Shown: in pieces, positions 10,197 through 40,818 of the stretch
Position numbering within the stretch: the first letter of the stretch is position 1
Layout of the letters: every line of letters starts with the position of its first letter
Origin: a virus
Length of the DNA stretch: 64,000 bases
IMG/VR virus record: IMGVR_UViG_3300022745_000628
Location: 129,797-193,796 of that record
Reading direction: 5' to 3' (one strand)
The notes under the pieces: model-generated
Seen by the model: only the letters and a program-made list of their open reading frames with translations
What the model was told of the DNA's origin: nothing
Databases searched by the model: none
Made by a program: the position numbers and the translations under genes

Positions 10197-10570
10197 GCGG
10201 AATGAGTCATACAATTCAATGTAAGGTTAAATGCGACAATGGAGATGCGTTGCACAGTGCCTGCAAAATATTGGGCATTGCTAAACCTGTACGCGGTCGC
10301 CACCGCCTATTTGACGGCAATGTTGTCAACGGATTGGCGTTTAGATTAAAAGATTGGCTGTATGATGTAGTGGTAGACAGCTCCGGTACGCTGCACTACG
10401 ACAACTACAACGAGCGCTGGGGTAAGACTGAGGAGCTCGATACTTTTCTACAACGCTATGCTCTTGAAGCGGCTAAAGCTGCCGCTACAAGCAACGGTTA
10501 CGAGTACGACGAGTACACGCAACCGGACGGATCCATCGAATTGGTTTGTAAAGAGGTGTTCAATGGCTGA
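10193..10570 (+). CDS. DUF1257 (Ycf35-like) protein
   Basis: SHTIQCKVKCDNGDALHSAC..LG, YDNYNERWG and YALEAAK..A...GY pattern; directly follows the Ycf46-like AAA gene. Confidence 0.75.
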   Translation: MSGMSHTIQCKVKCDNGDALHSACKILGIAKPVRGRHRLFDGNVVNGLAFRLKDWLYDVVVDSSGTLHYDNYNERWGKTEELDTFLQRYALEAAKAAATSNGYEYDEYTQPDGSIELVCKEVFNG

Positions 10571-10775
10571 TATTCGAATCATCGTGCCAAAAACCGGGTT
10601 GGCTACTGGCAAAACACACGTAAAAGTAGATGCCGTCGGCTTTAAAGGCCAAGGCTGCACTACGGCTACTAAAATCTTCAGTGACGCCATAGGTAAATCT
10701 GAAGTCGAAGAACTCAAACCTGAGTTTTACGAATCGCCGGACGAGCAGTTAAATCCAGAGCTCGAGTTTGAGTAA
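10563..10775 (+). CDS. DUF2997-like protein
   Basis: ATG at 10563; VKVDAVGFKGQGC..AT....AIG......LKPEFY pattern. Confidence 0.75.
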   Translation: MADIRIIVPKTGLATGKTHVKVDAVGFKGQGCTTATKIFSDAIGKSEVEELKPEFYESPDEQLNPELEFE

Positions 10776-13296: not shown

Positions 13297-13951
13297 GATA
13301 TTTTCATGGTCAGTAACCCCTGGTGCAAAACATAGTTGCCCAAAAGAAACTGAGACCTGCCGAGCATTATGTTACGCTAAGCACGGCTTCTTCCTCATGC
13401 GGAGTACCGCTGAGGCACATAAACGTAATCTCACGATGAGCAAACGCGCTACATTTGCTCCAAAGATGATCGCGTATTTGAAAACCAGCCGGGTGACTTG
13501 TGTGCGTATACACGCCGCAGGCGATTTTTACGACGTACACTACATACGAAAATGGCACCAAATAATGAGTGCCTTGCCAAATATCCAATTTTACGCGTAT
13601 ACCCGATCTTGGCAGGATGCTGTGATGTTGCGGAGTTTGGTGCGCTTAACACAGCTGCCAAACTTTAAACTGTGGTATTCATGTGATAGGAGTTCCGGCC
13701 GTCCGCCGGTAACCTATCGCGTCAATTGGGCATATCTTGCGGTGGACGATCTGGATAAGCCGGATTACGCCTGCGACTTAATATTTCGAGCCCGTAGAAA
13801 TACAGTGCATAAGCGAATAAATGGTGTGTTAGTCTGTCCGGTTGAAAACGGGGTAGCCGCCAAATCAAAAATTACATGTACCACATGCGGAGTATGCTGG
13901 GACAATAAAAAATTGCATGCCCTTGAACGAAAAATGAGTTTCGAGTGTTAG
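13265..13951 (+). CDS. GP88-like (radical-SAM-related, Cys-cluster) protein
   Basis: GNTKLG...SCP...C...CYA, VRIHAAGDFYD, FYAYTRSW, C..C..C; GTG start after GGAAG preferred over the track's 13202. Confidence 0.75.
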   Translation: MVPGNTKLGPKIFSWSVTPGAKHSCPKETETCRALCYAKHGFFLMRSTAEAHKRNLTMSKRATFAPKMIAYLKTSRVTCVRIHAAGDFYDVHYIRKWHQIMSALPNIQFYAYTRSWQDAVMLRSLVRLTQLPNFKLWYSCDRSSGRPPVTYRVNWAYLAVDDLDKPDYACDLIFRARRNTVHKRINGVLVCPVENGVAAKSKITCTTCGVCWDNKKLHALERKMSFEC

Positions 13952-14190
13952 TGCTTAATCGCAAACAGAACGAGTCGGTTTGTATATGGTTATCGCGTCA
14001 ACATTTGTTGGCGCTATTAGCCGATCCGGCGAACGAATTTTTGATTACCGTTAAGGTAACTAAAATTGCGCCAACTTCAGTGAAGTTAGGATTCACGTCC
14101 CCACAAGAAGTAGTGATTCTACGAGAAGAGGTCAGCCAGCGACAGCAAGCTGATCGAATTAATTCGTTACAGACGAATACTACCGCTTAG
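13945..14190 (+). CDS. csrA: CsrA/RsmA-like RNA-binding translational regulator
   Basis: MLVLNRKQNESVCI...VKLGFTSPQEVVILREEV; contains an insertion. Confidence 0.8.
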   Translation: MLVLNRKQNESVCIWLSRQHLLALLADPANEFLITVKVTKIAPTSVKLGFTSPQEVVILREEVSQRQQADRINSLQTNTTA

Positions 14191-19001: not shown

Positions 19002-19442
19002 ATGCCGTTTGAGCTTGTATTGTTGTACGCACTATATGCCTTAGCCGTTAAGGCAATAGTCCACATCTGGTTATACTCCTCGCTGTTCGAGCCTTTGCAA
19101 ACAGCCATGTCAGCGGTATTAGACGCTAGATATGCCGATGCAAAGGAAAGTGCGATTGCAGCTACGCCTAGCGAAGATACTGCGCCGGCTACTGCGTATA
19201 TCCAAAATACGGTGACCTGGCCAAATTACATTGCTGGGCGCTTGCACACTTGGATGCTAGAGTTACTCACGTGCCAGCTTTGTTTGTCCGTGCACGTGGC
19301 ATTCTGGTATGGCTTGTTAATTATCGTTCCTACCTTAACGTGCTGGTTTAACGGGTCTTGGCTGTTATGGCTGTTCTTGACCCCGACAACCGTATTTTCA
19401 ATCGTGACGCTGGTTAATTCACCGAGAATATGGATCACATGA
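19002..19442 (+). CDS. DUF1360-like membrane protein
   Basis: GAGGA RBS; hydrophobic helices; LLTCQLCLSVHVAFW motif. Confidence 0.65.
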   Translation: MPFELVLLYALYALAVKAIVHIWLYSSLFEPLQTAMSAVLDARYADAKESAIAATPSEDTAPATAYIQNTVTWPNYIAGRLHTWMLELLTCQLCLSVHVAFWYGLLIIVPTLTCWFNGSWLLWLFLTPTTVFSIVTLVNSPRIWIT

Positions 19443-19984
19443 AAATTAAAATTCCAAGTGAGGAGCGAATTAGAAATATCGACGTAAATAGCGTGCTGCG
19501 CGAGCTCAACATTGAAAATTGGGATGTGTTGATAATCGGCGATGGTTCTGGAAGTACTTGGCAAAACTACTGCGGTTGGGCAGCGTTAATTATCGATCGA
19601 GAAACACAAGGAAGGCGCTTAATTGGCGGAAACGCCAATATGGGCAGCATCACTTTTGCGGAAGCAATGCCGTACGTGCAAGCCTTGTCTTGGTTCGATC
19701 ACACCTACGGCTCACGCCGTCTAAAATCCGTGGACAAACTCTCGGTACACATCGTTACCGATTCAACTGCAATCGCTACGATCGGCAGTCAGATCTCAAG
19801 TAAATCCAAGGATAGTCTGCGAAAACACGCGTACTTAGCTGCTTTTTGTCAACAAATGGCTAAATTCCGTTATGACATTCAATGGCATTGGCTACGCAGG
19901 GAAATTGCGGATGGAAATCGACTTGTCGATGGTGTTTCTAAAGCGTTGAGGTTGTTTGGAGCAGGCGCGTTGGAATCTCAATGA
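19430..19984 (+). CDS. RNase HI-like protein
   Basis: IIGDGSG, FAEAM, IVTDS and GNRLVD give the D-E-D-D tetrad of the RNase H fold. Confidence 0.75.
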   Translation: MDHMKIKIPSEERIRNIDVNSVLRELNIENWDVLIIGDGSGSTWQNYCGWAALIIDRETQGRRLIGGNANMGSITFAEAMPYVQALSWFDHTYGSRRLKSVDKLSVHIVTDSTAIATIGSQISSKSKDSLRKHAYLAAFCQQMAKFRYDIQWHWLRREIADGNRLVDGVSKALRLFGAGALESQ

Positions 19985-20000
19985 GATCGATCTGAGTGTT

Positions 20001-20090
20001 TGATATTAAAGTTTGTAAATGTTAAATGTAATGTGAATGTTAGATAATTTAAAATGTTAGATAAATGTAAATGTGTGCGATGATGTAAGT
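20001..20090. repeat. AT-rich, C-depleted tract with 8 ATGT copies
   Basis: ATGT at 20019, 20026, 20031, 20037, 20054, 20065, 20071 and 20083; only one C in 90 nt. Confidence 0.75.
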
Positions 20091-20157
20091 AAACGCGTGG
20101 AATGATAATGCCAAGTTGGCGCGGGTTGTTTTGATTTGGTTTAGGAAAGCCCTTGAG

Positions 20158-20364
20158 GGTTGAAGACATGATAGCAAGGAATTTGAATTGGCAACGTACT
20201 ATTTTTCAAAATTGCCAAAATAGTTTGCTCAACCACAGAAGTAAGACCACTAGGGCTGGTGGAGCCGCCCATAGGCGAGACCACCCGAACCTGACGCTAG
20301 GAAGGTTGTGGTTTTACTTTCTGTGTGTTCTAGCGAACCCACTATGAAATAGGGGGTTTGCTAG
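20158..20364 (+). ncRNA. candidate structured non-coding RNA domain
   Basis: 17-bp stem 20234-20250/20308-20325 enclosing two sub-hairpins, plus hairpin 20330-20364; G.U pairs occur on the + strand only. Confidence 0.35.
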
Positions 20365-20549
20365 TAGACCGTCCAGAGTCCTCGTTTTGCCTTTTAAAAT
20401 CGACGTACGTCCGGGCTAGAGTCCTCGTTTTTGGTCATGTGTCCTCGTTTTTTACGATTTTCGCCAAAAAACGAGGACTCTGGACGGTCTATAGAAGGGT
20501 CGCGAGGACTCTAGCCCGGACGTAGAATCAAAAACGAGGACACATGACC
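20365..20549. repeat. three crossing inverted-repeat pairs A B C A' B' C' sharing core GTCCTCG
   Basis: A 20365-20388/20468-20491 (24 bp), B 20406-20427/20503-20524 (22 bp), C 20433-20452/20530-20549 (20 bp); all pairs are perfect. Confidence 0.9.
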
Positions 20550-20613
20550 GAGATTGACAGTTAATAAACTAATGTTAACGATTTAAAATTAGTATTTGTG
20601 ATTGAAGCTACCA

Positions 20614-20628
20614 CGGTAAAATTTACCG
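20614..20628. promoter_or_regulatory. operator-like palindrome CGGTAAA-A-TTTACCG
   Basis: Perfect 7-bp arms in the non-coding locus. Confidence 0.4.
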
Positions 20629-20736
20629 ATGCCGCGTTGTCCGACCGTTTTTGTCGCGCACACCCAGGACGTATTTTTGACTTCCAGGCTTCCTTAATTT
20701 GACCTAGGGCGAGTCGAAAATTTTTCAAAAAAAAAC

Positions 20737-20765
20737 TTGCTGCTTAGCCAATATCAGGCTAGTCT
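20737..20765 (+). promoter_or_regulatory. sigma70-type promoter
   Basis: TTGCTG-17-TAGTCT preceded by an A-tract (UP-like). Confidence 0.55.
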
Positions 20766-20909
20766 GCGGTGGTTTAAGTGCTTTCGCACACTCCGGTTCG
20801 CAAAATTCGGCAGCGCGCTGGCATCAAAATCCAACGTAAAGCGTATGTACTTAAATTGTGTTATGTAATAACTTTTGTTAGATGCGTTTGTAAGAAAGAA
20901 GTGTGATAT

Positions 20910-21293
20910 ATGGGCACGATGCATTACAGTAATCGCACTATGCGCGGTGTGATTCGGGAATCGTTAGAAGATACGCATAGAGGAAGATTACGCGCGGTGC
21001 GTTGCGTAGAGGCTTGTTGGCGTGGAAATAAATTTAGTGGGATCTTGTGGTCTCGCTGGCAGAATCCAAGTTTTCCAGTAGAGAGCCTTATCATGGCTGA
21101 CAGGATTACGTGTAAAGGTAATGCTATCTGGCATTCCACGTACACGGAGCAGGATGGTCCGTACGCGTACAGTTGTCCGCTAAAGTATTTAGAGGCGCCT
21201 ACTGTTTACATGAATCCTTCTTGGCGTGACAGTGTTATCGAATACCACGCTAGAAGGGCGGCTAAGCGTAATGGCAGCTTCGCGACCAAATAA
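20910..21293 (+). CDS. hypothetical protein (DUF6927-like C-terminus)
   Basis: EQDGPYAYSCPLKYL...SWRDSV..YH pattern recalled from mobile-element proteins. Confidence 0.55.
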   Translation: MGTMHYSNRTMRGVIRESLEDTHRGRLRAVRCVEACWRGNKFSGILWSRWQNPSFPVESLIMADRITCKGNAIWHSTYTEQDGPYAYSCPLKYLEAPTVYMNPSWRDSVIEYHARRAAKRNGSFATK

Positions 21294-29956: not shown

Positions 29957-32416
29957 ATGTTTAAAAATGGGGCACGGCCAGCCACGGCCGGCACTTCTAG
30001 ACCTGAAGTGTCTCCGTCGGCAATTGAATTGATTTTGATACTGTGCGCGACTAACGAAGCATTGTTTAACGATGTAGCCAGGCTTATCGAGCCTGATGAT
30101 CTATATAAAGAAGAAGAAACAGCGCTAAAAGCTGTGTGGGCTGGAATGTTGCAGTCTAAAGAGCTAGTGAGCGGCCTCAGTTTTGAATCGGTGTGTTACT
30201 ACACCGATCATTATTTGAAAACGCATCCGCTAGAGGCGACTACTCTTCCACAAGAAGCTGTAGACGCAATATACAGACCTGATCCAAGCGGATTGATTTA
30301 TTCGATTGCATATCCGGACATTCCAGCTAGTCCTGAAAACATAGCATTAGCCCGCCGACATTTACAAAACTTGTCGTACGAGCGCGATGTGTTTCGGGTA
30401 ATTCAAAATGCGGTATCTGCTCCGTATGGCGGGGTTAATGATATCACCGATGTTTTAAACGCGGCCAAAGAACATATAGTTCGGATCACAGCCACTAGTG
30501 CAATTCCTAAAGTAGACGTGGCCCCGCCATTTGGAACGCAGCTCGCACCGGCGGCTAATTATCTGCTGACGGGTATGCCGTTTATAGATAATAGATTAGG
30601 CGGTCAGCGTGTCGGCGATGTTAACGGAATATTGGGGCCCACGGGCGGCGGGAAAGCGCAGCCGTTAGACGCTATTGTTATGACCAGTCGCGGACCAAAG
30701 CCTATGGGCGACATTGTCGTTGGCGAAGTAATTTGCGATCCAATGGGCGGCTATACACGTGTTACAGGTGTTTTTCCGCAAGGAAAACTGGATGCGTATG
30801 AAATAGTCTTTTCGGACGGCAGCACGACCCGCTGCTGTGGTGATCATTTATGGAAGGTAGATTCCGTATACAACGGGTGGCGTGGCCGTGTGATGTCCAC
30901 AGATGAGCTACGCAAGCAACTCAAATCTAAAACTGGAGCCGCTAGATATTCGATAGGTTTAACAGCTCCTGTAGATTTTGAGCATCAGTCTGTAATGCTA
31001 GATCCGTATCTTATTGGGACAATTATGGGGCGCATGGGTAAATATGCTTATGAGAAGGCTATACCAGACGAATATTTGTATACAGATGCTGCGTCGAGAT
31101 GGGCGCTGTTACAAGGATTAATGGACACCGATGGTTATGTAATGGCGCGAGTAGAGCGTCCGGACAGGTGTCGCCTAGAGTACACAACCACAAGTTACCA
31201 GTTGCACAAGCAATTTGTATGGCTAGTGCAATCGTTAGGCGGGCTAGCCACGGTAACTATTAAAAAGACTAAAAAATACCGAGATGCCTATCGTATATGC
31301 GTCAAAATGGACGATTCCGCTAAATGCTTTAGATTGCCGCGTAAAAAACGACTGTGTAGCGACAGGCGAAAAGCGCAAGGTAAAAAGCACCCAGTTAAAC
31401 GACTAATAAAGGATATACGGGCTATTGGCGCTGTTGAGTGTCAATGTATTTCTGTAGATTCGCCGTCTAAATTGTATTTGACCGATAACTTCATTGTTAC
31501 GCACAATACAACTTTGGCACTAGATATGGCGTTACAGGCTTGCAAACAAAGCTTAATCGAGTCACTGGAGACAGGTAAACCGCCGGCACAGGTGATATTT
31601 TTAACTGCCGAAGAAAGCGCCGAAAAGTTACGCCCAAGACTATGGTCTAACTGGTTTAATATCCCACGTGATTTCTTAGAACGAAATGCCGATTGGGAAG
31701 AATATTCTAGGCCTGGAGCGTTAAAGCCGTATGAATTGCAGATGTACCAGGGTTCGCCAGCGCAGTTCTCCGAAGTAGAACGGTACAACATGTTTGCAGA
31801 GCAATTGAGTAAAACACTTGTGCTGTTGGATATATCCGGCAATACCATGTTTCCAGATGCCGGAAACTTCGGATTAAAAGAAATAACGTCGCTGGTAGTA
31901 AGAGCGGTGGACGAGTACGGCATCGCTCCGCGCGCTGTATTTGTGGACTACGCTGGCTTGATAGTAGAGCGGCAGTTAACTAGTTCGCGAGACCCAGCTA
32001 AAGATCTGCAATTTAAACTCAAGCGATTTGCAGATGAGTTCCGTAAAGACATAATTGAAAAGGTAAGCTCCACTGGCTGGTTGCTGCATCAATTAAAAGG
32101 CGAAGCCGCTGAGTTTTCACCAACTAAAGAATTGACTATGGCCGACGCAGGATCTTGTAAGGATTTTGCAGTTAACATGGCGGTGTGCATGATGCTGGGA
32201 GTACCAGACCCGCATACAGGTTGCAGAATACTGCATATGCCTAAAACACGGTACCGAGGTCCAAATATGGATACGCAGCCACATAAAGTGCTTTTACAAA
32301 TTCATAATCAATTTTCTAGGATGGTGGACGTGTCAACAGAATTTTCAGTCGATGCTGCTACCAGGCAGTTTTTACCGGTTAACGAGTTACGCAGTATTGG
32401 CGGGATGGGGATGTGA
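29957..32416 (+). CDS. dnaB: DnaB-like replicative helicase with intein
   Basis: GPTGGGK|TT Walker A split by the intein; VFVDYAG Walker B; LHQL motif. Confidence 0.85.
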   Translation: MFKNGARPATAGTSRPEVSPSAIELILILCATNEALFNDVARLIEPDDLYKEEETALKAVWAGMLQSKELVSGLSFESVCYYTDHYLKTHPLEATTLPQEAVDAIYRPDPSGLIYSIAYPDIPASPENIALARRHLQNLSYERDVFRVIQNAVSAPYGGVNDITDVLNAAKEHIVRITATSAIPKVDVAPPFGTQLAPAANYLLTGMPFIDNRLGGQRVGDVNGILGPTGGGKAQPLDAIVMTSRGPKPMGDIVVGEVICDPMGGYTRVTGVFPQGKLDAYEIVFSDGSTTRCCGDHLWKVDSVYNGWRGRVMSTDELRKQLKSKTGAARYSIGLTAPVDFEHQSVMLDPYLIGTIMGRMGKYAYEKAIPDEYLYTDAASRWALLQGLMDTDGYVMARVERPDRCRLEYTTTSYQLHKQFVWLVQSLGGLATVTIKKTKKYRDAYRICVKMDDSAKCFRLPRKKRLCSDRRKAQGKKHPVKRLIKDIRAIGAVECQCISVDSPSKLYLTDNFIVTHNTTLALDMALQACKQSLIESLETGKPPAQVIFLTAEESAEKLRPRLWSNWFNIPRDFLERNADWEEYSRPGALKPYELQMYQGSPAQFSEVERYNMFAEQLSKTLVLLDISGNTMFPDAGNFGLKEITSLVVRAVDEYGIAPRAVFVDYAGLIVERQLTSSRDPAKDLQFKLKRFADEFRKDIIEKVSSTGWLLHQLKGEAAEFSPTKELTMADAGSCKDFAVNMAVCMMLGVPDPHTGCRILHMPKTRYRGPNMDTQPHKVLLQIHNQFSRMVDVSTEFSVDAATRQFLPVNELRSIGGMGM
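30656..31507 (+). mobile_element. class 3 intein (284 aa) with degenerate LAGLIDADG endonuclease
   Basis: Starts AQPLD and ends IVTHN before Thr+1; DHLW, QCISV and VTHN give the W-C-T triplet; LLQGLMDTDG present. Confidence 0.92.
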
Positions 32417-33498
32417 CTATGGTAGGTGATCCGTTGTACCAAAGGGTGCAAAGAGGAGTGCCGTCCGTGTTAAATAAACCGCTGTATATGCGCTTGGAGC
32501 AGTTATACGGTAAGGTTAAAGTGCACAAGCAAGGCGAACATTTGCGAGAAGTTCCGGCTATTAATCCGGTAACAGGTAAACAAGGTAAAAGAGTCGCGGT
32601 ATTTGGCGAGCAGTATCGAATAAATTGTCCGTATTGCGCTGATACGACGTACCGATGTTACGTAAATCACATGTTTGGCGCATATACGCAAGATGGTCGA
32701 CAGTTAACGCAGTTGATCAAGTGTTACAACGAAGATTGTTTCAAAACTGCTAGCACGTTGGAACGTTTTAAGAGCTTGGTCATTGGCATTCTTAATGCAA
32801 ATTCCAGACAAGCTATGCAATTTGTTACGACAGGTGTGATGGATACATCGCCGATACTACGTAAACAACCTGAGTTGCCGGGCGAGGTCATGTCTTTGAC
32901 GATGCTGGAGCGTATATCGCCTAAACATCCGGCTGTGCAATATATGAAGGCCGATCGCAAATACACAAGTGAGATGCTAGACAAGTATCAAGTAGGTTAT
33001 TGCACCCACTCTCAAAAATACGGAATGGCGTCGGAACGCATAATATTCCCGTGTTTTAAAGAACAAGCGTTGTGGGGCTGGCAAGCCAGGTATGTTGGCA
33101 AGCCTATAAAGTCTGTGCCGAAGTATTACAATTTTCCAGACATGGAAAAAACGGCGTGGATGTACAACCTTGACACGGCCAAAGATAAGGACATGCTTGT
33201 GCTTGTAGAAGGCATACCAGCTGTGCATTTTGTAGGCGATAACGCAGCCGCGTTATTAGGTAAGACTATATCGTCTGCGCAAGCTGAGCTAATAGGTAGA
33301 TATTTTAAGAATAAAGTAGTAGTGCTTTGGCTGGATCTGGACGCACAGCCGACTATAAATTTTCAATTGGAAACAATTAAACGCGCGGGGGCTATTGCCG
33401 TAAACGTATCGCCAATAAATGATTTGGATCCGGCGGACTACGGCACTTCTGACGCGTGGAGGTTGATTCACGGAGCAATAGCGAAAGCAAGAAAATAG
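32413..33498 (+). CDS. DNA primase (Zn finger plus TOPRIM)
   Basis: CPYC, RIIFP, WQARY, KYYN, LVEG and LDLD motifs. Confidence 0.88.
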   Translation: MTMVGDPLYQRVQRGVPSVLNKPLYMRLEQLYGKVKVHKQGEHLREVPAINPVTGKQGKRVAVFGEQYRINCPYCADTTYRCYVNHMFGAYTQDGRQLTQLIKCYNEDCFKTASTLERFKSLVIGILNANSRQAMQFVTTGVMDTSPILRKQPELPGEVMSLTMLERISPKHPAVQYMKADRKYTSEMLDKYQVGYCTHSQKYGMASERIIFPCFKEQALWGWQARYVGKPIKSVPKYYNFPDMEKTAWMYNLDTAKDKDMLVLVEGIPAVHFVGDNAAALLGKTISSAQAELIGRYFKNKVVVLWLDLDAQPTINFQLETIKRAGAIAVNVSPINDLDPADYGTSDAWRLIHGAIAKARK

Positions 33499-36400
33499 TG
33501 CGTACAAACACAGAGTTGTTCAACGAGCTTGTAGCCAGTAACAATGTTACGGCACTGAACGACGCATTTCCGATGTATGCGTTGAATTCGCCAGGGCTAC
33601 CTCCGCCTGGGATAGATTTTATTAAACACGCTGAGCAACTTGGAGATACCCAAGCGGTAATTCAAGGAGCGGCGTCCAAAGGCCAGTTGATGTCCTGGGG
33701 TAAAAATCTAGAGTATTTGTATAGGCGCGCGTTATATGACAACATGTTTTCATTACCCGTGGCTATTAAGAATCTGGTTAAACCAGCACGGGTAGTACCG
33801 GGGCATATTATTGGCGACGATACGTCGGACATGTCTGGTGGACCGCGTCCGGCTAAAGTGATGATCGTTACTAAAGCACCTACTCGCGACGAAGCTGCAA
33901 GTTGCAGGTATTTAGTTGGAGACATATTCGGCGTGTTAAATACGACATTGCGTGAAGTAGGGCTAACGGATGCGATAGTTAGCGAGTTCTATGTAACGGC
34001 TATATGCAAGTGGCCAGCGCTGTTACCGCAGTCGGACGCCATACCTGCAACGCATTTGAACGATTGCGCGTTACTGCTGCATCAAGAATTGCGCATAGTC
34101 AGGCCTGACTACATTTTGTGCTTAGGGTCTGACGCAGGTAAATGGTTTTTGGGGACCAACGGCGCGGTAGCCGCTATGGTCGGAAAGATTGATAAATACG
34201 AGTACGCTGTTCAAAAGTTTGGAGAAGAGCCCGTTAGCCATACTGCAAAGATTGTGGTGGCTCCGCATCCGGCCGCGGTATTTAGAAAGACCGAGCTGTT
34301 CCCAGAATTCCGGGACCAACTCAAACTTTTTAAATCGCTGTGTAGCGGCGAAAAAATCGTAGAGTACGAAGTCGGACTTAAATACAAGAACGTCTACAAA
34401 TTACGAGAGTTACGAAAGATAGTTGACAGTATTGTTAACAATCCTGACCCGACGGCGAGAATAATAGCTGTCGACGGAGAGTGGCACGGCGATCAGCCGA
34501 TGGAACCAGGAGCGTATCTACGCACCATTCAAATTAGCGCCGCTGAAAAAGAAGCCTATTGTGTGGTGTTACGCCATCAAGGCGGATCCGAAGCGTTTAA
34601 ACCTAATATCCCGGCGGCAATTAATGAATTGAAGCGCTTGCTAAAGCGCGACCCAGCTAAAAATTACTATCCAAGACCTGGCGGCCACTATTTCCGAGCC
34701 GACTTGCCGTGGCTGCTACATGAAGGGCTGGACTTACGAGAAGAGTACGCACCGCCATCCAGTTATTTAGATGCAAGACACAGTGGCGGCTGGGATACTT
34801 CCCACATGGTGCATGCACATAACGAAACCGCTATGTTCGGGCTCACAGAAGTAATGGTGCGCTGGACTACTATGCCTGTGTACGACACTTTGATCAAGAA
34901 AGCTGTAAGTGAGTACTGCAAACAGCGCGATATTAAAAAAGAGGCGCTGGAAGGATACGGATTTCTCGGTAACTGGTTACTGCATCCGGAACCTTATGAC
35001 CCTGAATGGCGATTTAATTACAGTGCTATTGATGCAGACGTGACTCGCCGTATTGCTATGCGCTTCCTGAGCCCAGGCGGTGCGCTGGACAAAGATTGGT
35101 TTGGAAACCCATGTTGGGAGCCGTATTGGCTAACACATACAGCTAGTCTAGGCGTATTGCAGATGGAGATGAACGGCATTGCGTTGGATAAACAACGCGT
35201 TGACGATCTGACAACCATGTTTATGTACGTATACGGCGTACTATTAGCTGACTTTCGTAATCAAATCAATTGGCCAGATTTTAATCCAGACTCAGTGCCT
35301 AATTGCGTGGCGTTCATGTTTGGAGATAGCTACAGCCAAAAGATAGATCCAGAAACCAAGCAGCGCGTACTGGTGAAGCCGCCGGATGCACTTAGTTTGA
35401 ATTTGGAGCCTATTAAAAGTACTGGTAAACGACCTAAATTGTGGTCCGACGTGGTTAAAAACCGTGAAACGGATGCTTACTCGCCGAGTACCGATAAAGA
35501 AGTTTTAGGCATATTGGGACACGCGCACCCGTTAGCTATGCAACTTCGAGACTTGAAATTTATAAATCAAGTTCTTAAAGGCGCGCTACGAAAGCCTAAT
35601 TACGACGAAGAATCGTCGGATTGGGAAGTGGACGAGGAAGGAAACCTGGTCTACGATAAAGGTGTGCCTGGGTCAGTATGTTCGGACGGTTGCGTTCGCA
35701 CGCATATATCGCAGAATAAAGAAACCGGGCGATACTCTAGTGCGCGGCCTAACTTACAGGCAATTTCTAAAAAGCGCGAAGCTGATTACGCGCGTATTTG
35801 CGGATATTACGAAACAAACGCAGAAGGCGTTAAAACGCCGAAAGGCGATTATTTACGGTTGCTGCATGAACCGCTGTATAAAAATCAGATACGGTCTATT
35901 TTTAAAGCAAAACCAGGCTACGTCTTGGTAGAAGCAGACTATATCGGTGCTGAGTTAGCGGCTATCGGATGGCTAGCTCAAGATAAAACGTTGATGGACA
36001 GGGTACGACGAAACTGCTTGCCAACCACCGATCCGGATTATTACGAAATACACAGTCAAACAGCCGTGAAGGCGTTTAAGTTAAACTGCGCTCCAACTAA
36101 AAAGGGGCTCGAGTCGTTAGGAAAAATCGCATTACGCGTGGCTGCCAAAAATATAGCGTTTGGAATTCCGTACGGCCGCGGGGCAGAAGCGATATCTAGA
36201 CAATGTCGCGAAGAAGGTGTTAACGTTTCGGTAGAAGAGTGTCAGCAACTAATGGCATTCTATTTTGAAGAGTATCCGGCAGTAGCTGTTTATTTGGACA
36301 AGGCTAAAGCTAGAACGCAGGTAGAGCGTTGGATGGCTGGATCGTTCGGAAGATTACGAAGATTTTTTCCGTCTAAAGAACGATCTGTGATCGGAGAACA

Positions 36401-36806
36401 AGAACGCCAAGGTTGTAATTTTGGTGTTCAGAATTGTGTGGCAGACGCGCTGACCACAGCAATCAGCAATTTTTATCAATATCAGTGTAATCACGACGAT
36501 TGTGCTTTTGAGCTTACGCTTCCAATACACGACGCGATTTTGTTTAATGTGCGGATTGACGCGCTAACAAGATTCTGCAAAGATGTGCACCTCCAAGACG
36601 GCACAGTAAAACGATCGGTACTACGGCAATGTATGGTCGATTCCGTACCGATCTGGCCAAGACTTTTAGACAATACGCCAATGGCTATTGACGCTCCATA
36701 CCACTTTGGTATTGATATTACGGTATCAACCAGTTGGGGGGAGAAGATGTCTGAAGACGAAGCCAAAGAATTGGGAATTAATTTGCACGATTTGGATCTC
36801 GAGTGA
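33498..36806 (+). CDS. polA: family A DNA polymerase with N-terminal uracil-DNA-glycosylase-like domain
   Basis: UDG-like KAP..DE and HPAAVFR; exonuclease VDGE and YSAID; polymerase motifs EADY, KNIAFGIPYG and IHDA. GTG start overlaps the primase stop. Confidence 0.93.
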   Translation: MRTNTELFNELVASNNVTALNDAFPMYALNSPGLPPPGIDFIKHAEQLGDTQAVIQGAASKGQLMSWGKNLEYLYRRALYDNMFSLPVAIKNLVKPARVVPGHIIGDDTSDMSGGPRPAKVMIVTKAPTRDEAASCRYLVGDIFGVLNTTLREVGLTDAIVSEFYVTAICKWPALLPQSDAIPATHLNDCALLLHQELRIVRPDYILCLGSDAGKWFLGTNGAVAAMVGKIDKYEYAVQKFGEEPVSHTAKIVVAPHPAAVFRKTELFPEFRDQLKLFKSLCSGEKIVEYEVGLKYKNVYKLRELRKIVDSIVNNPDPTARIIAVDGEWHGDQPMEPGAYLRTIQISAAEKEAYCVVLRHQGGSEAFKPNIPAAINELKRLLKRDPAKNYYPRPGGHYFRADLPWLLHEGLDLREEYAPPSSYLDARHSGGWDTSHMVHAHNETAMFGLTEVMVRWTTMPVYDTLIKKAVSEYCKQRDIKKEALEGYGFLGNWLLHPEPYDPEWRFNYSAIDADVTRRIAMRFLSPGGALDKDWFGNPCWEPYWLTHTASLGVLQMEMNGIALDKQRVDDLTTMFMYVYGVLLADFRNQINWPDFNPDSVPNCVAFMFGDSYSQKIDPETKQRVLVKPPDALSLNLEPIKSTGKRPKLWSDVVKNRETDAYSPSTDKEVLGILGHAHPLAMQLRDLKFINQVLKGALRKPNYDEESSDWEVDEEGNLVYDKGVPGSVCSDGCVRTHISQNKETGRYSSARPNLQAISKKREADYARICGYYETNAEGVKTPKGDYLRLLHEPLYKNQIRSIFKAKPGYVLVEADYIGAELAAIGWLAQDKTLMDRVRRNCLPTTDPDYYEIHSQTAVKAFKLNCAPTKKGLESLGKIALRVAAKNIAFGIPYGRGAEAISRQCREEGVNVSVEECQQLMAFYFEEYPAVAVYLDKAKARTQVERWMAGSFGRLRRFFPSKERSVIGEQERQGCNFGVQNCVADALTTAISNFYQYQCNHDDCAFELTLPIHDAILFNVRIDALTRFCKDVHLQDGTVKRSVLRQCMVDSVPIWPRLLDNTPMAIDAPYHFGIDITVSTSWGEKMSEDEAKELGINLHDLDLE

Positions 36807-40711: not shown

Positions 40712-40734
40712 CGTTTAGTAGGTAACAACTAGCG

Positions 40735-40805
40735 GCGCCGTTAGCACCAAGGCGGTGCACCAGCTTTCAATCTGAGTGAGATCGGTTCGATTCCGATACG
40801 GCGCT
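40735..40805 (+). tRNA. tRNA-like gene, probably Glu(UUC)-derived, with irregular anticodon arm
   Basis: Acceptor GCGCCGT/ACGGCGC, D stem GCAC/GTGC, T arm ATCGG-TTCGATT-CCGAT; anticodon arm CAG-CTTTCAAT-CTG; no encoded CCA. Confidence 0.65.
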
Positions 40806-40818
40806 ATGGAGGAGAATT

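Follow-up and report, generated by a model that had tools for sequence, protein, structure and literature searches.

Iteron origins with sites in two orientations are known from several replicons, among them the ori and crr regions of phage P4 with their type I iterons and the plasmids pSC101 and pPS10, in which inverted half-iterons act as operators. The iterons of such origins have one consensus, and we know of no iteron origin that has been described with long flanks matching a single partner in an interleaved order. Viral origins with dyad symmetry include the SV40 pentanucleotides, the papillomavirus E1 sites and boxes I-III of HSV oriS. Activation of oriS is aided by the pairing of its inverted boxes within a strand once the DNA has melted. 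An interleaved order is found in synthetic designs, namely the FLEx/DIO switch, a synthetic arrangement of interleaved lox variants (loxP and lox2272), and the Seeman-type single-strand DNA knots, which have the order X Y X' Y'. The double-strand origin of the rolling-circle plasmid pMV158 contains direct repeats in two sets, together with an A-T tract and a hairpin that can be extruded, and hexameric RepB binds all of these (PMC1851628).

The locus described here is a 185-bp array at positions 20365-20549 of the window, the 64,000-nt stretch of DNA that was analysed, which reaches to the end of a 193,796-bp virus record (47% GC). An inverted-repeat search finds in it three inverted-repeat pairs, each perfect (100% complementary) and together arranged as A B C A' B' C'. 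Arm A (20365-20388, plus strand, 24 nt) consists of a 13-nt specific flank, the core GTCCTCG at 20378-20384 and four T residues. Arm B (20406-20427, plus strand, 22 nt) has a 15-nt specific flank and a core at 20421-20427, which is followed by five T residues, and arm C (20433-20452, plus strand, 20 nt) has an 8-nt specific flank, a core at 20441-20447 and a tract of five to six T residues. A central spacer (20453-20467) separates this triad from the one converging on it and is the loop of a 13-bp hairpin between the C core and A'. The second triad lies on the minus strand and consists of the reverse complements of the first: A' (20468-20491, core CGAGGAC at 20472-20478), B' (20503-20524, core at 20503-20509) and C' (20530-20549, core at 20535-20541). 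From A to C' the linkers are 17, 5, 15, 11 and 5 nt long. The GTCCTCG/CGAGGAC core is present in all six arms and a T/A tract in five of them, B' being the exception. The arm lengths, the crossing order, the linkers and the distribution of core and tract had all been claimed in the preliminary description, and each was found again on re-measurement.

When the arms are aligned on their cores, partners agree without interruption over the 13 nt (A/A'), 15 nt (B/B') and 8 nt (C/C') that precede the core, as against 0-3 nt for all twelve non-partner pairs, so that the earlier claim that each flank matches its own partner alone holds. All 66 base pairs of the arms are Watson-Crick pairs, with no G-U or G-T wobble, which fits the expectation for a feature of the duplex. 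A further 7-nt match, AAAATCG at 20397-20403 against CGATTTT at 20455-20461, prolongs the A unit past the perfect arm. Within the array sequence, the arms have no internal dyad symmetry, and no outer copy of B flanks A or C'.

Each triad spans 63 bp; successive cores lie 43 and then 20 bp apart on the left, and 31 and then 32 bp apart on the right. All four spacings are within 1 bp of a whole number of helical turns. Of the 36 whole-number spacings between 15 and 50 bp, 8 would fit this phasing as well, which by enumeration gives a chance of about 0.002 for the four together. The cores of A and C' and those of C and A' have a common dyad centre at 20459.5, while the centre of B/B' is at 20465, B' being shifted by about one helical turn. 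Whole-turn phasing together with a common dyad centre is the geometry needed for cooperative binding to one face of a duplex and is of no use to a single-strand fold. That the inner and outer dyads have one centre, and that both triads are 63 bp long, suggests that the positions of the sites are under constraint. The layout of the array is far beyond chance.

The interpretation that we prefer, and to which we give nearly an even chance, is that the array is a double-stranded, initiator-binding array of the origin (iteron) type. We infer the protein binding, the identity of the binder and the origin function. With the iteron origins the array shares a short core in direct and inverted copies, helical phasing and a position beside an AT-rich region and a gene for an initiator, here a candidate. 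It has a cluster of sites that is unique in the replicon, the AT-rich region being recognised by its composition. The single consensus of the iterons sets those origins apart from it, and a plain iteron model does not predict an identity of 8-15 nt limited to the flanks of partner arms. Partner flanks may have stayed perfectly identical because they were copied recently, because recognition extends into them, or because they pair once the DNA has melted. The origins of SV40, papillomaviruses and HSV resemble the array in that their initiator sites form inverted sets pointing to a common centre, with an AT-rich element at its flank. They differ in belonging to viruses of eukaryotes, whose initiators are SF3 or UL9 helicases, and in having much shorter sites and nested arms. 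The FLEx switch and the Seeman knots show the same abstract order of partner-specific inverted elements, but are engineered and need either a recombinase or free ends and ligation. Phrase searches of the literature gave no natural precedent for interleaved or crossed inverted repeats, in agreement with the preliminary description, whose author knew of no element with such a layout.

The reverse complement of the inner unit (20433-20491) reproduces exactly both arms of the outer pair A...C'. Any imperfect hairpin that carries its own inverted copy in its loop has the order P Q P' Q'. If the outer A..C' was copied in inverted form to give the inner C..A', and B/B' is nested between the two, the crossing order results. 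Most simply, then, a single inverted self-copy together with one palindrome is enough to produce this order, and no coordination among three pairs is required. It is a serious possibility, though one that we incline to doubt, that the crossing order is a functionless historical by-product of such copying: a unit A-spacer-C' would have taken up its own inverted copy, C-spacer-A', within the loop, with the palindrome B/B' on either side of the copy. The copy could have arisen by template switching at the common cores or by insertion of a hairpin-type repeat. The 7-nt match that extends the A unit beyond the perfect arm is in keeping with this history, and the perfect Watson-Crick identity agrees with recent copying. 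Against it, no further copy of any arm, or of the core with its T-tract, is present in the phage genome, unlike REP/REPIN-type repeats; the dispersed copies that characterise such elements are missing, since the unit has no second copy in the phage genome. The missing outer copy of B beside A or C' also speaks against a by-product, as does the constraint on position suggested by the coincident centres and equal spans. If the order is nevertheless a by-product, the locus is a clean case of inverted self-copies imitating pseudoknots and would be useful to screens for crossing repeats.

The predicted minimum-free-energy fold of the array, for DNA and RNA alike, is nested, with stems of 11 bp (A core/C'), 23 bp (B/B') and 13 bp (C core/A'). 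It corresponds to the nested structure that had been put forward as a competitor of a knot-like three-helix bundle, the two being proposed as states of a switch. The nested fold is far more stable than those of shuffled sequences, with -51 kcal/mol (z -7.2) for DNA and -93.6 kcal/mol (z -7.9) for RNA, and the naive sum of the three crossing helices, which ignores any penalty for interlocking, is lower still at -71 kcal/mol for DNA and -118 kcal/mol for RNA. These values, together with a partner-specific complementarity in three different sequences that resembles internal covariation, leave a slim chance that the array works as a folded single strand, either as the nested hairpin or as an interlocked three-helix structure or knot, possibly switching between them. 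The strand could be a transcript or displaced single-stranded DNA, comparable with the single-strand origin of rolling-circle replicons or with an RNase III-type processing site; a Rep_1-like neighbour (see below) would suit a single-strand origin. A fold of this kind leaves the duplex-type phasing unexplained, and not one of the 66 base pairs is a wobble pair. The best Rfam match, and the only one at E up to 1, is a chance match to an miRNA with 23 bits against a gathering score of 117. None of the public sequencing runs listed with the array is an RNA run. As the crossing helices have about two turns each, an end would have to thread a closed loop about twice, and neither a long transcript nor a strand of genome length could plausibly do so. 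The phasing, the lack of wobble pairs, the need for threading and a crossing order that an inverted self-copy yields of itself leave the knot, the three-helix bundle and the two-state switch unsupported.

The core GTCCTCG occurs 14 times in the 193,796-bp genome, with six of the copies inside the array, and GTCCTCGTTT is restricted to the array. Exact inverted repeats of at least 14 nt within 400 nt number six in the whole genome, of which four are in the array. No crossing repeat pair was found outside the array in 565 kb scanned, comprising the genome and other loci retrieved for comparison.

The array is identical in at least four independent assemblies over the parts that they cover. Two of them, from ENA, are contigs of 197,548 bp and 5.7 kb and show 100% identity across the array. 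One Logan contig starts inside the array at 20388 and is 100% identical over the part that it covers; this start, with a 23-nt overlap to the neighbouring contig, is read as an assembly break and not as a rearrangement. A different freshwater run yielded a Logan contig of 118,920 bp, which spans the array with no difference and no joint. Mis-assembly or a chimeric join, which had been named as a possible source of the pattern, is excluded because independent assemblies are identical across the array and independent contigs span it unchanged. Its orientation is the same in every assembly, and neither joints nor local inversions occur, at the level of contigs, which can hide rare variants.

This constancy bears on the suggestion of overlapping invertible sites, one of the alternatives listed in the preliminary description. 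The three pairs would then be heterospecific recombination sites at which partners recombine with each other only, giving overlapping invertible segments. A common core adjoining identity limited to partners is indeed what identity in a crossover region would require, and the interleaved inverted order is that of the FLEx layout. The idea is nonetheless barely credible here. No tyrosine recombinase is encoded in the genome, and the sole serine recombinase belongs to an IS607-like unit with TnpB 114 kb away. The arms lack internal dyad symmetry, the segments of 5-17 bp between them are too short, and an invertible or shufflon-type element, for which a suitable recombinase and an alternative orientation would be expected, is matched by neither in the assemblies, within the limits of contigs as to rare variants. 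Of the alternatives in the same list, the six-site initiator array is the one that the evidence favours.

The serine recombinase is a protein of 185 aa with a Resolvase domain; on the minus strand, its gene immediately precedes that of a TnpB-like protein of 365 aa (L059:393-2037; genome 34973-36617, outside the window). The TnpB-like protein has Cas12f1-like TNB and OrfB_IS605 domains, and the pair looks like an IS607-type insertion. The small number of exact inverted repeats outside the array (two of at least 14 nt within 400 nt) points to strong palindrome avoidance in this phage, which encodes SbcCD.

The array is located in the largest ORF-free gap of the 194-kb genome (19985-20909, from the gene calls). 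To the left of the gap is a conserved block consisting of TerL (minus strand), genes for proteins of 70 aa and 146 aa, and an RNase HI-family gene (19430-19984, plus strand), which is the last gene of the block and the left border of a variable region. The block is common to a large family of metagenomic phages of about 200 kb. To the right, in order, are a gene for a 127-aa protein (20910-21293, plus strand), the gene for an orphan 352-aa protein here called P0001 (21271-22329, plus strand) and a conserved 352-aa gene. These are followed by SbcD, SbcC, a UvsW-like helicase, an intein-bearing 819-aa protein, a primase-like protein and a PolA-UDG fusion. The array is thus at the head of a replication/recombination operon. 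A family search with the 127-aa protein found none, and the ESM Atlas contained no usable match for it. Nearly all genes are on the plus strand. The GC skew of the genome is monotonic and does not turn at the array, where the preliminary description had advised looking for a change; the skew tracks the uniform gene direction.

Several genes of the window have features of their own. The PolA-UDG fusion (33456-36806) is a family A DNA polymerase with an N-terminal domain of the uracil-DNA glycosylase superfamily, and its 819-aa neighbour (29957-32416) carries a LAGLIDADG (intein-like) insert. The sole tRNA in the window, found by ARAGORN at 40734-40806, is of undetermined type with the four-base anticodon 'ttca' and may be a suppressor or an odd decoder. 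A CsrA homologue (PF02599) is encoded at 13951-14190 and is found in relatives too. The ACGAGGAC words of the array resemble GGA-type CsrA sites, an idea that was set aside, CsrA being conserved in relatives that do not have the array.

Directly after C' lies an AT-rich segment (20550-20600) with 78-80% AT over 50 nt, which by composition places it in the top 0.035% of the 50-mers of the genome and makes it a candidate unwinding element. It also contains promoter-like hexamers: C' ends at 20549, and just beyond it are TTGACA at 20554-20559 and TTAATA-17-TAAAAT at 20561-20589. These raise the possibility that the array regulates, as an operator or an upstream element, a promoter abutting C' that controls the replication/recombination operon, a repressor or activator, possibly the 127-aa protein or the Rep-like protein acting on its own operon, filling the six phased sites. 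In iteron plasmids, inverted half-iterons serve as rep operators, and an operator is compatible with an origin. The phasing and dyad geometry would suit cooperative binding to the duplex, and the first genes downstream are phage-specific orphans. Regulation as the main function of the array is nevertheless unlikely: promoter-like matches are no more frequent than in shuffled sequence, and six sites across 185 bp together with the extreme AT tract exceed the needs of most operators.

The nearness of TerL, encoded 2 kb away, brings in a further possibility, a packaging recognition site (pac or cosB-like) for a terminase of the lambda gpA type, at which dimers of the small terminase would bridge inverted sites. 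In lambda cosB, gpNu1 bridges the inverted sites R3 and R2. TerL has a GpA_ATPase domain, and the array, a unique cluster of several sites with a central spacer, comes after the conserved TerL block. A packaging function is very improbable, however, given that TerL is on the opposite strand with four genes between it and the array, that no small terminase was identified, and that the distance from TerL to the repeat-bearing gap varies among relatives, being about 7.7 kb in L043 and about 5.5 kb in L062. The array is internal in the 118-kb and 197-kb contigs.

For an origin, which we continue to prefer, the best candidate initiator is P0001, whose gene is 0.7 kb downstream of the array. The protein is the sole member of its own cluster among 5.8 billion proteins and has no real homologue among 1.84 billion representative proteins. 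It has no Pfam match at E up to 10 and none in sequence searches of PHROGs or the PDB. In the ESM Atlas, P0001 lies beside Rep_1 (PF01446) and REP_ORF2-G2P clusters with feature scores of 0.95-0.96, and its structure there has a TM score of 0.53-0.56 to Rep_1 clusters over about 235 residues. A single-sequence AF2 model had a pLDDT of 34.5 and was left out of the fold search. Profile searches of the phage genome gave no match to PF01446 or PF23343. Against an alignment of nine plasmid Rep_1 proteins, hhalign matched only an N-terminal Cys motif (residues 111-148, E 0.079, probability 0.7%). By sequence, P0001 is therefore not recognised as a Rep_1 member by Pfam, by the genome profile search or by hhalign.

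In a low-confidence MAFFT alignment, P0001 is collinear with the nine Rep_1 proteins and keeps the C...CxxxxxCPxC motif. The same low-confidence alignment places ARLVVMRRR of P0001 opposite FLTLT of Rep_1, INPD--ELIV opposite YHPHFHVLL, which leaves the HUH histidines absent, and the Tyr of FCYPRY opposite the KY of KYxxK. An HUH metal-binding motif combined with a catalytic Tyr is accordingly not found in P0001, at the low confidence of this alignment. The pC194-type nick sequence TCTTGATA has no match with up to one mismatch within 19985-20909. Judging from the ESM features and structure, P0001 is probably a strongly diverged Rep_1-like protein, and it may not nick.

The origin of pMV158 has similar components: several short repeats, to which the initiator binds at two places separated by about 80-100 bp, an A-T tract and an inverted repeat able to extrude as a hairpin (PMC1851628). 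Its initiator gene adjoins the origin, as would be the case in the phage with P0001 as the candidate. The repeats of pMV158 differ in being direct and without pair-specific flanks, whereas those of the phage array are three plus three inverted copies. The HUH/Tyr site of RepB is functional and its nick has been mapped, while P0001 is without alignable HUH histidines and a nick sequence is not recognisable. One replicon is a plasmid, the other a 194-kb phage.

The proposed sequence of events begins with the three rightward and three leftward copies of the 7-12-bp core, which converge on the T/A-rich centre. A phage-specific initiator, for which the orphan Rep_1-like P0001 is the best candidate, would probably bind the cores. 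Occupying one face of the helix, it would bend or wrap the DNA. Bending or wrapping would then cause the AT-rich segment at 20550-20600 to open, or the hairpin between the C core and A' to extrude, in the manner of RepB at the pMV158 origin, and opening or extrusion would start the replication of the genome. The same sites may also autoregulate a promoter abutting C'. The position of the array in the largest ORF-free gap and at the head of the replication/recombination operon, with the Rep_1-like P0001 close downstream, argues for this series of events; the lack of a significant Rep_1 sequence match for P0001, the absence of a pC194-type nick sequence and the absence of a GC-skew turn argue against it.

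There is a small chance that the identity of partners was itself selected. After melting, each strand would pair A with A', B with B' and C with C' to form interlocking or alternative hairpins, partial and pseudoknot-like, which would hold the origin open or set its polarity. If so, the array would be a natural origin with interleaved arms that has no described counterpart, its formal analogues, FLEx switches and DNA knots, being synthetic. Interleaved partner-specific arms are in any case a rare natural layout, and a function for the partner identity would reveal a novel construction principle for an origin or a DNA switch. Should the array be an origin, its 185 bp and one orphan gene would constitute a concrete origin/initiator pair for a large family of freshwater phages of about 200 kb that has no cultured member in the phage collection searched. 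It would also mean that a Rep_1-like fold without the usual catalytic histidines had been recruited by a large dsDNA phage.

No homologue of the array was found in IMG/VR, the JGI metagenomes, INPHARED or related phage contigs. A blastn search of INPHARED with the array region gave no match, and searches of IMG/VR with TerL, a 367-aa protein and an RNase H alignment gave no loci. Pattern scans, with two direct cores in IMG/VR and with converging cores in IMG/VR and metagenomes, found no six-site array. Their matches were unrelated elements (coding repeats, arrays of other phages and small hairpins) and had no proteins in common with the phage. The gap containing the array shows no noncoding similarity to the gaps of seven related loci.

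Related phages retain the synteny from TerL (minus strand) to RNase H, and the content after the RNase H gene varies. Two of them have gaps of about 1.2 kb with repeat arrays of their own. In L043, the TerL of which is 61% identical, four direct copies and one inverted copy of TACCGYTAAKATGT (1354-1589) occupy a 1.16-kb ORF-free gap just upstream of a gene for a GHKL (HATPase_c_3) ATPase. In the more distant L062, three copies of AAATATGATAACA(GTTG...) spaced by 52-53 bp (10534-10664) also occupy a 1.16-kb ORF-free gap. A third relative, L045, has short gaps only. A different repeat word and a different adjacent gene at a similar place have the look of exchangeable modules, either origin and initiator or operator and regulator, and the arrays of the relatives agree with origin/initiator pairs that evolve fast.

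The scans also brought up elements outside the phage. Three unrelated IMG/VR contigs (L012:3865-3930, L013:4553-4625 and L015:6645-6697) have AT-rich noncoding arrays of three to four TGTGTCCTCGTTT sites spaced by about 21 bp, plus one inverted or degenerate copy. The core of these sites is that of the phage array, and the contigs have no proteins in common with the phage. A conserved hairpin, GTCCTCGTTTT...AAAACGAGGAC, is present in a family of marine viral contigs (L023-L030, L037, L041 and L042; for example L023:3615-3659), where it surrounds a TATAAT-like box directly upstream of a gene start and is possibly an operator or promoter hairpin. Another hairpin, CTTAAGTCCTCGTTTT-N8-AAAACGAGGACTTAAG, is conserved in four metagenome contigs (L031:4675-4704, L033:5459-5488, L036:2728-2757 and L038:65-94). 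It lies near a conserved GAGGTCCGACCCC motif in three of the four (L031, L033 and L036) and may be an unannotated small RNA.
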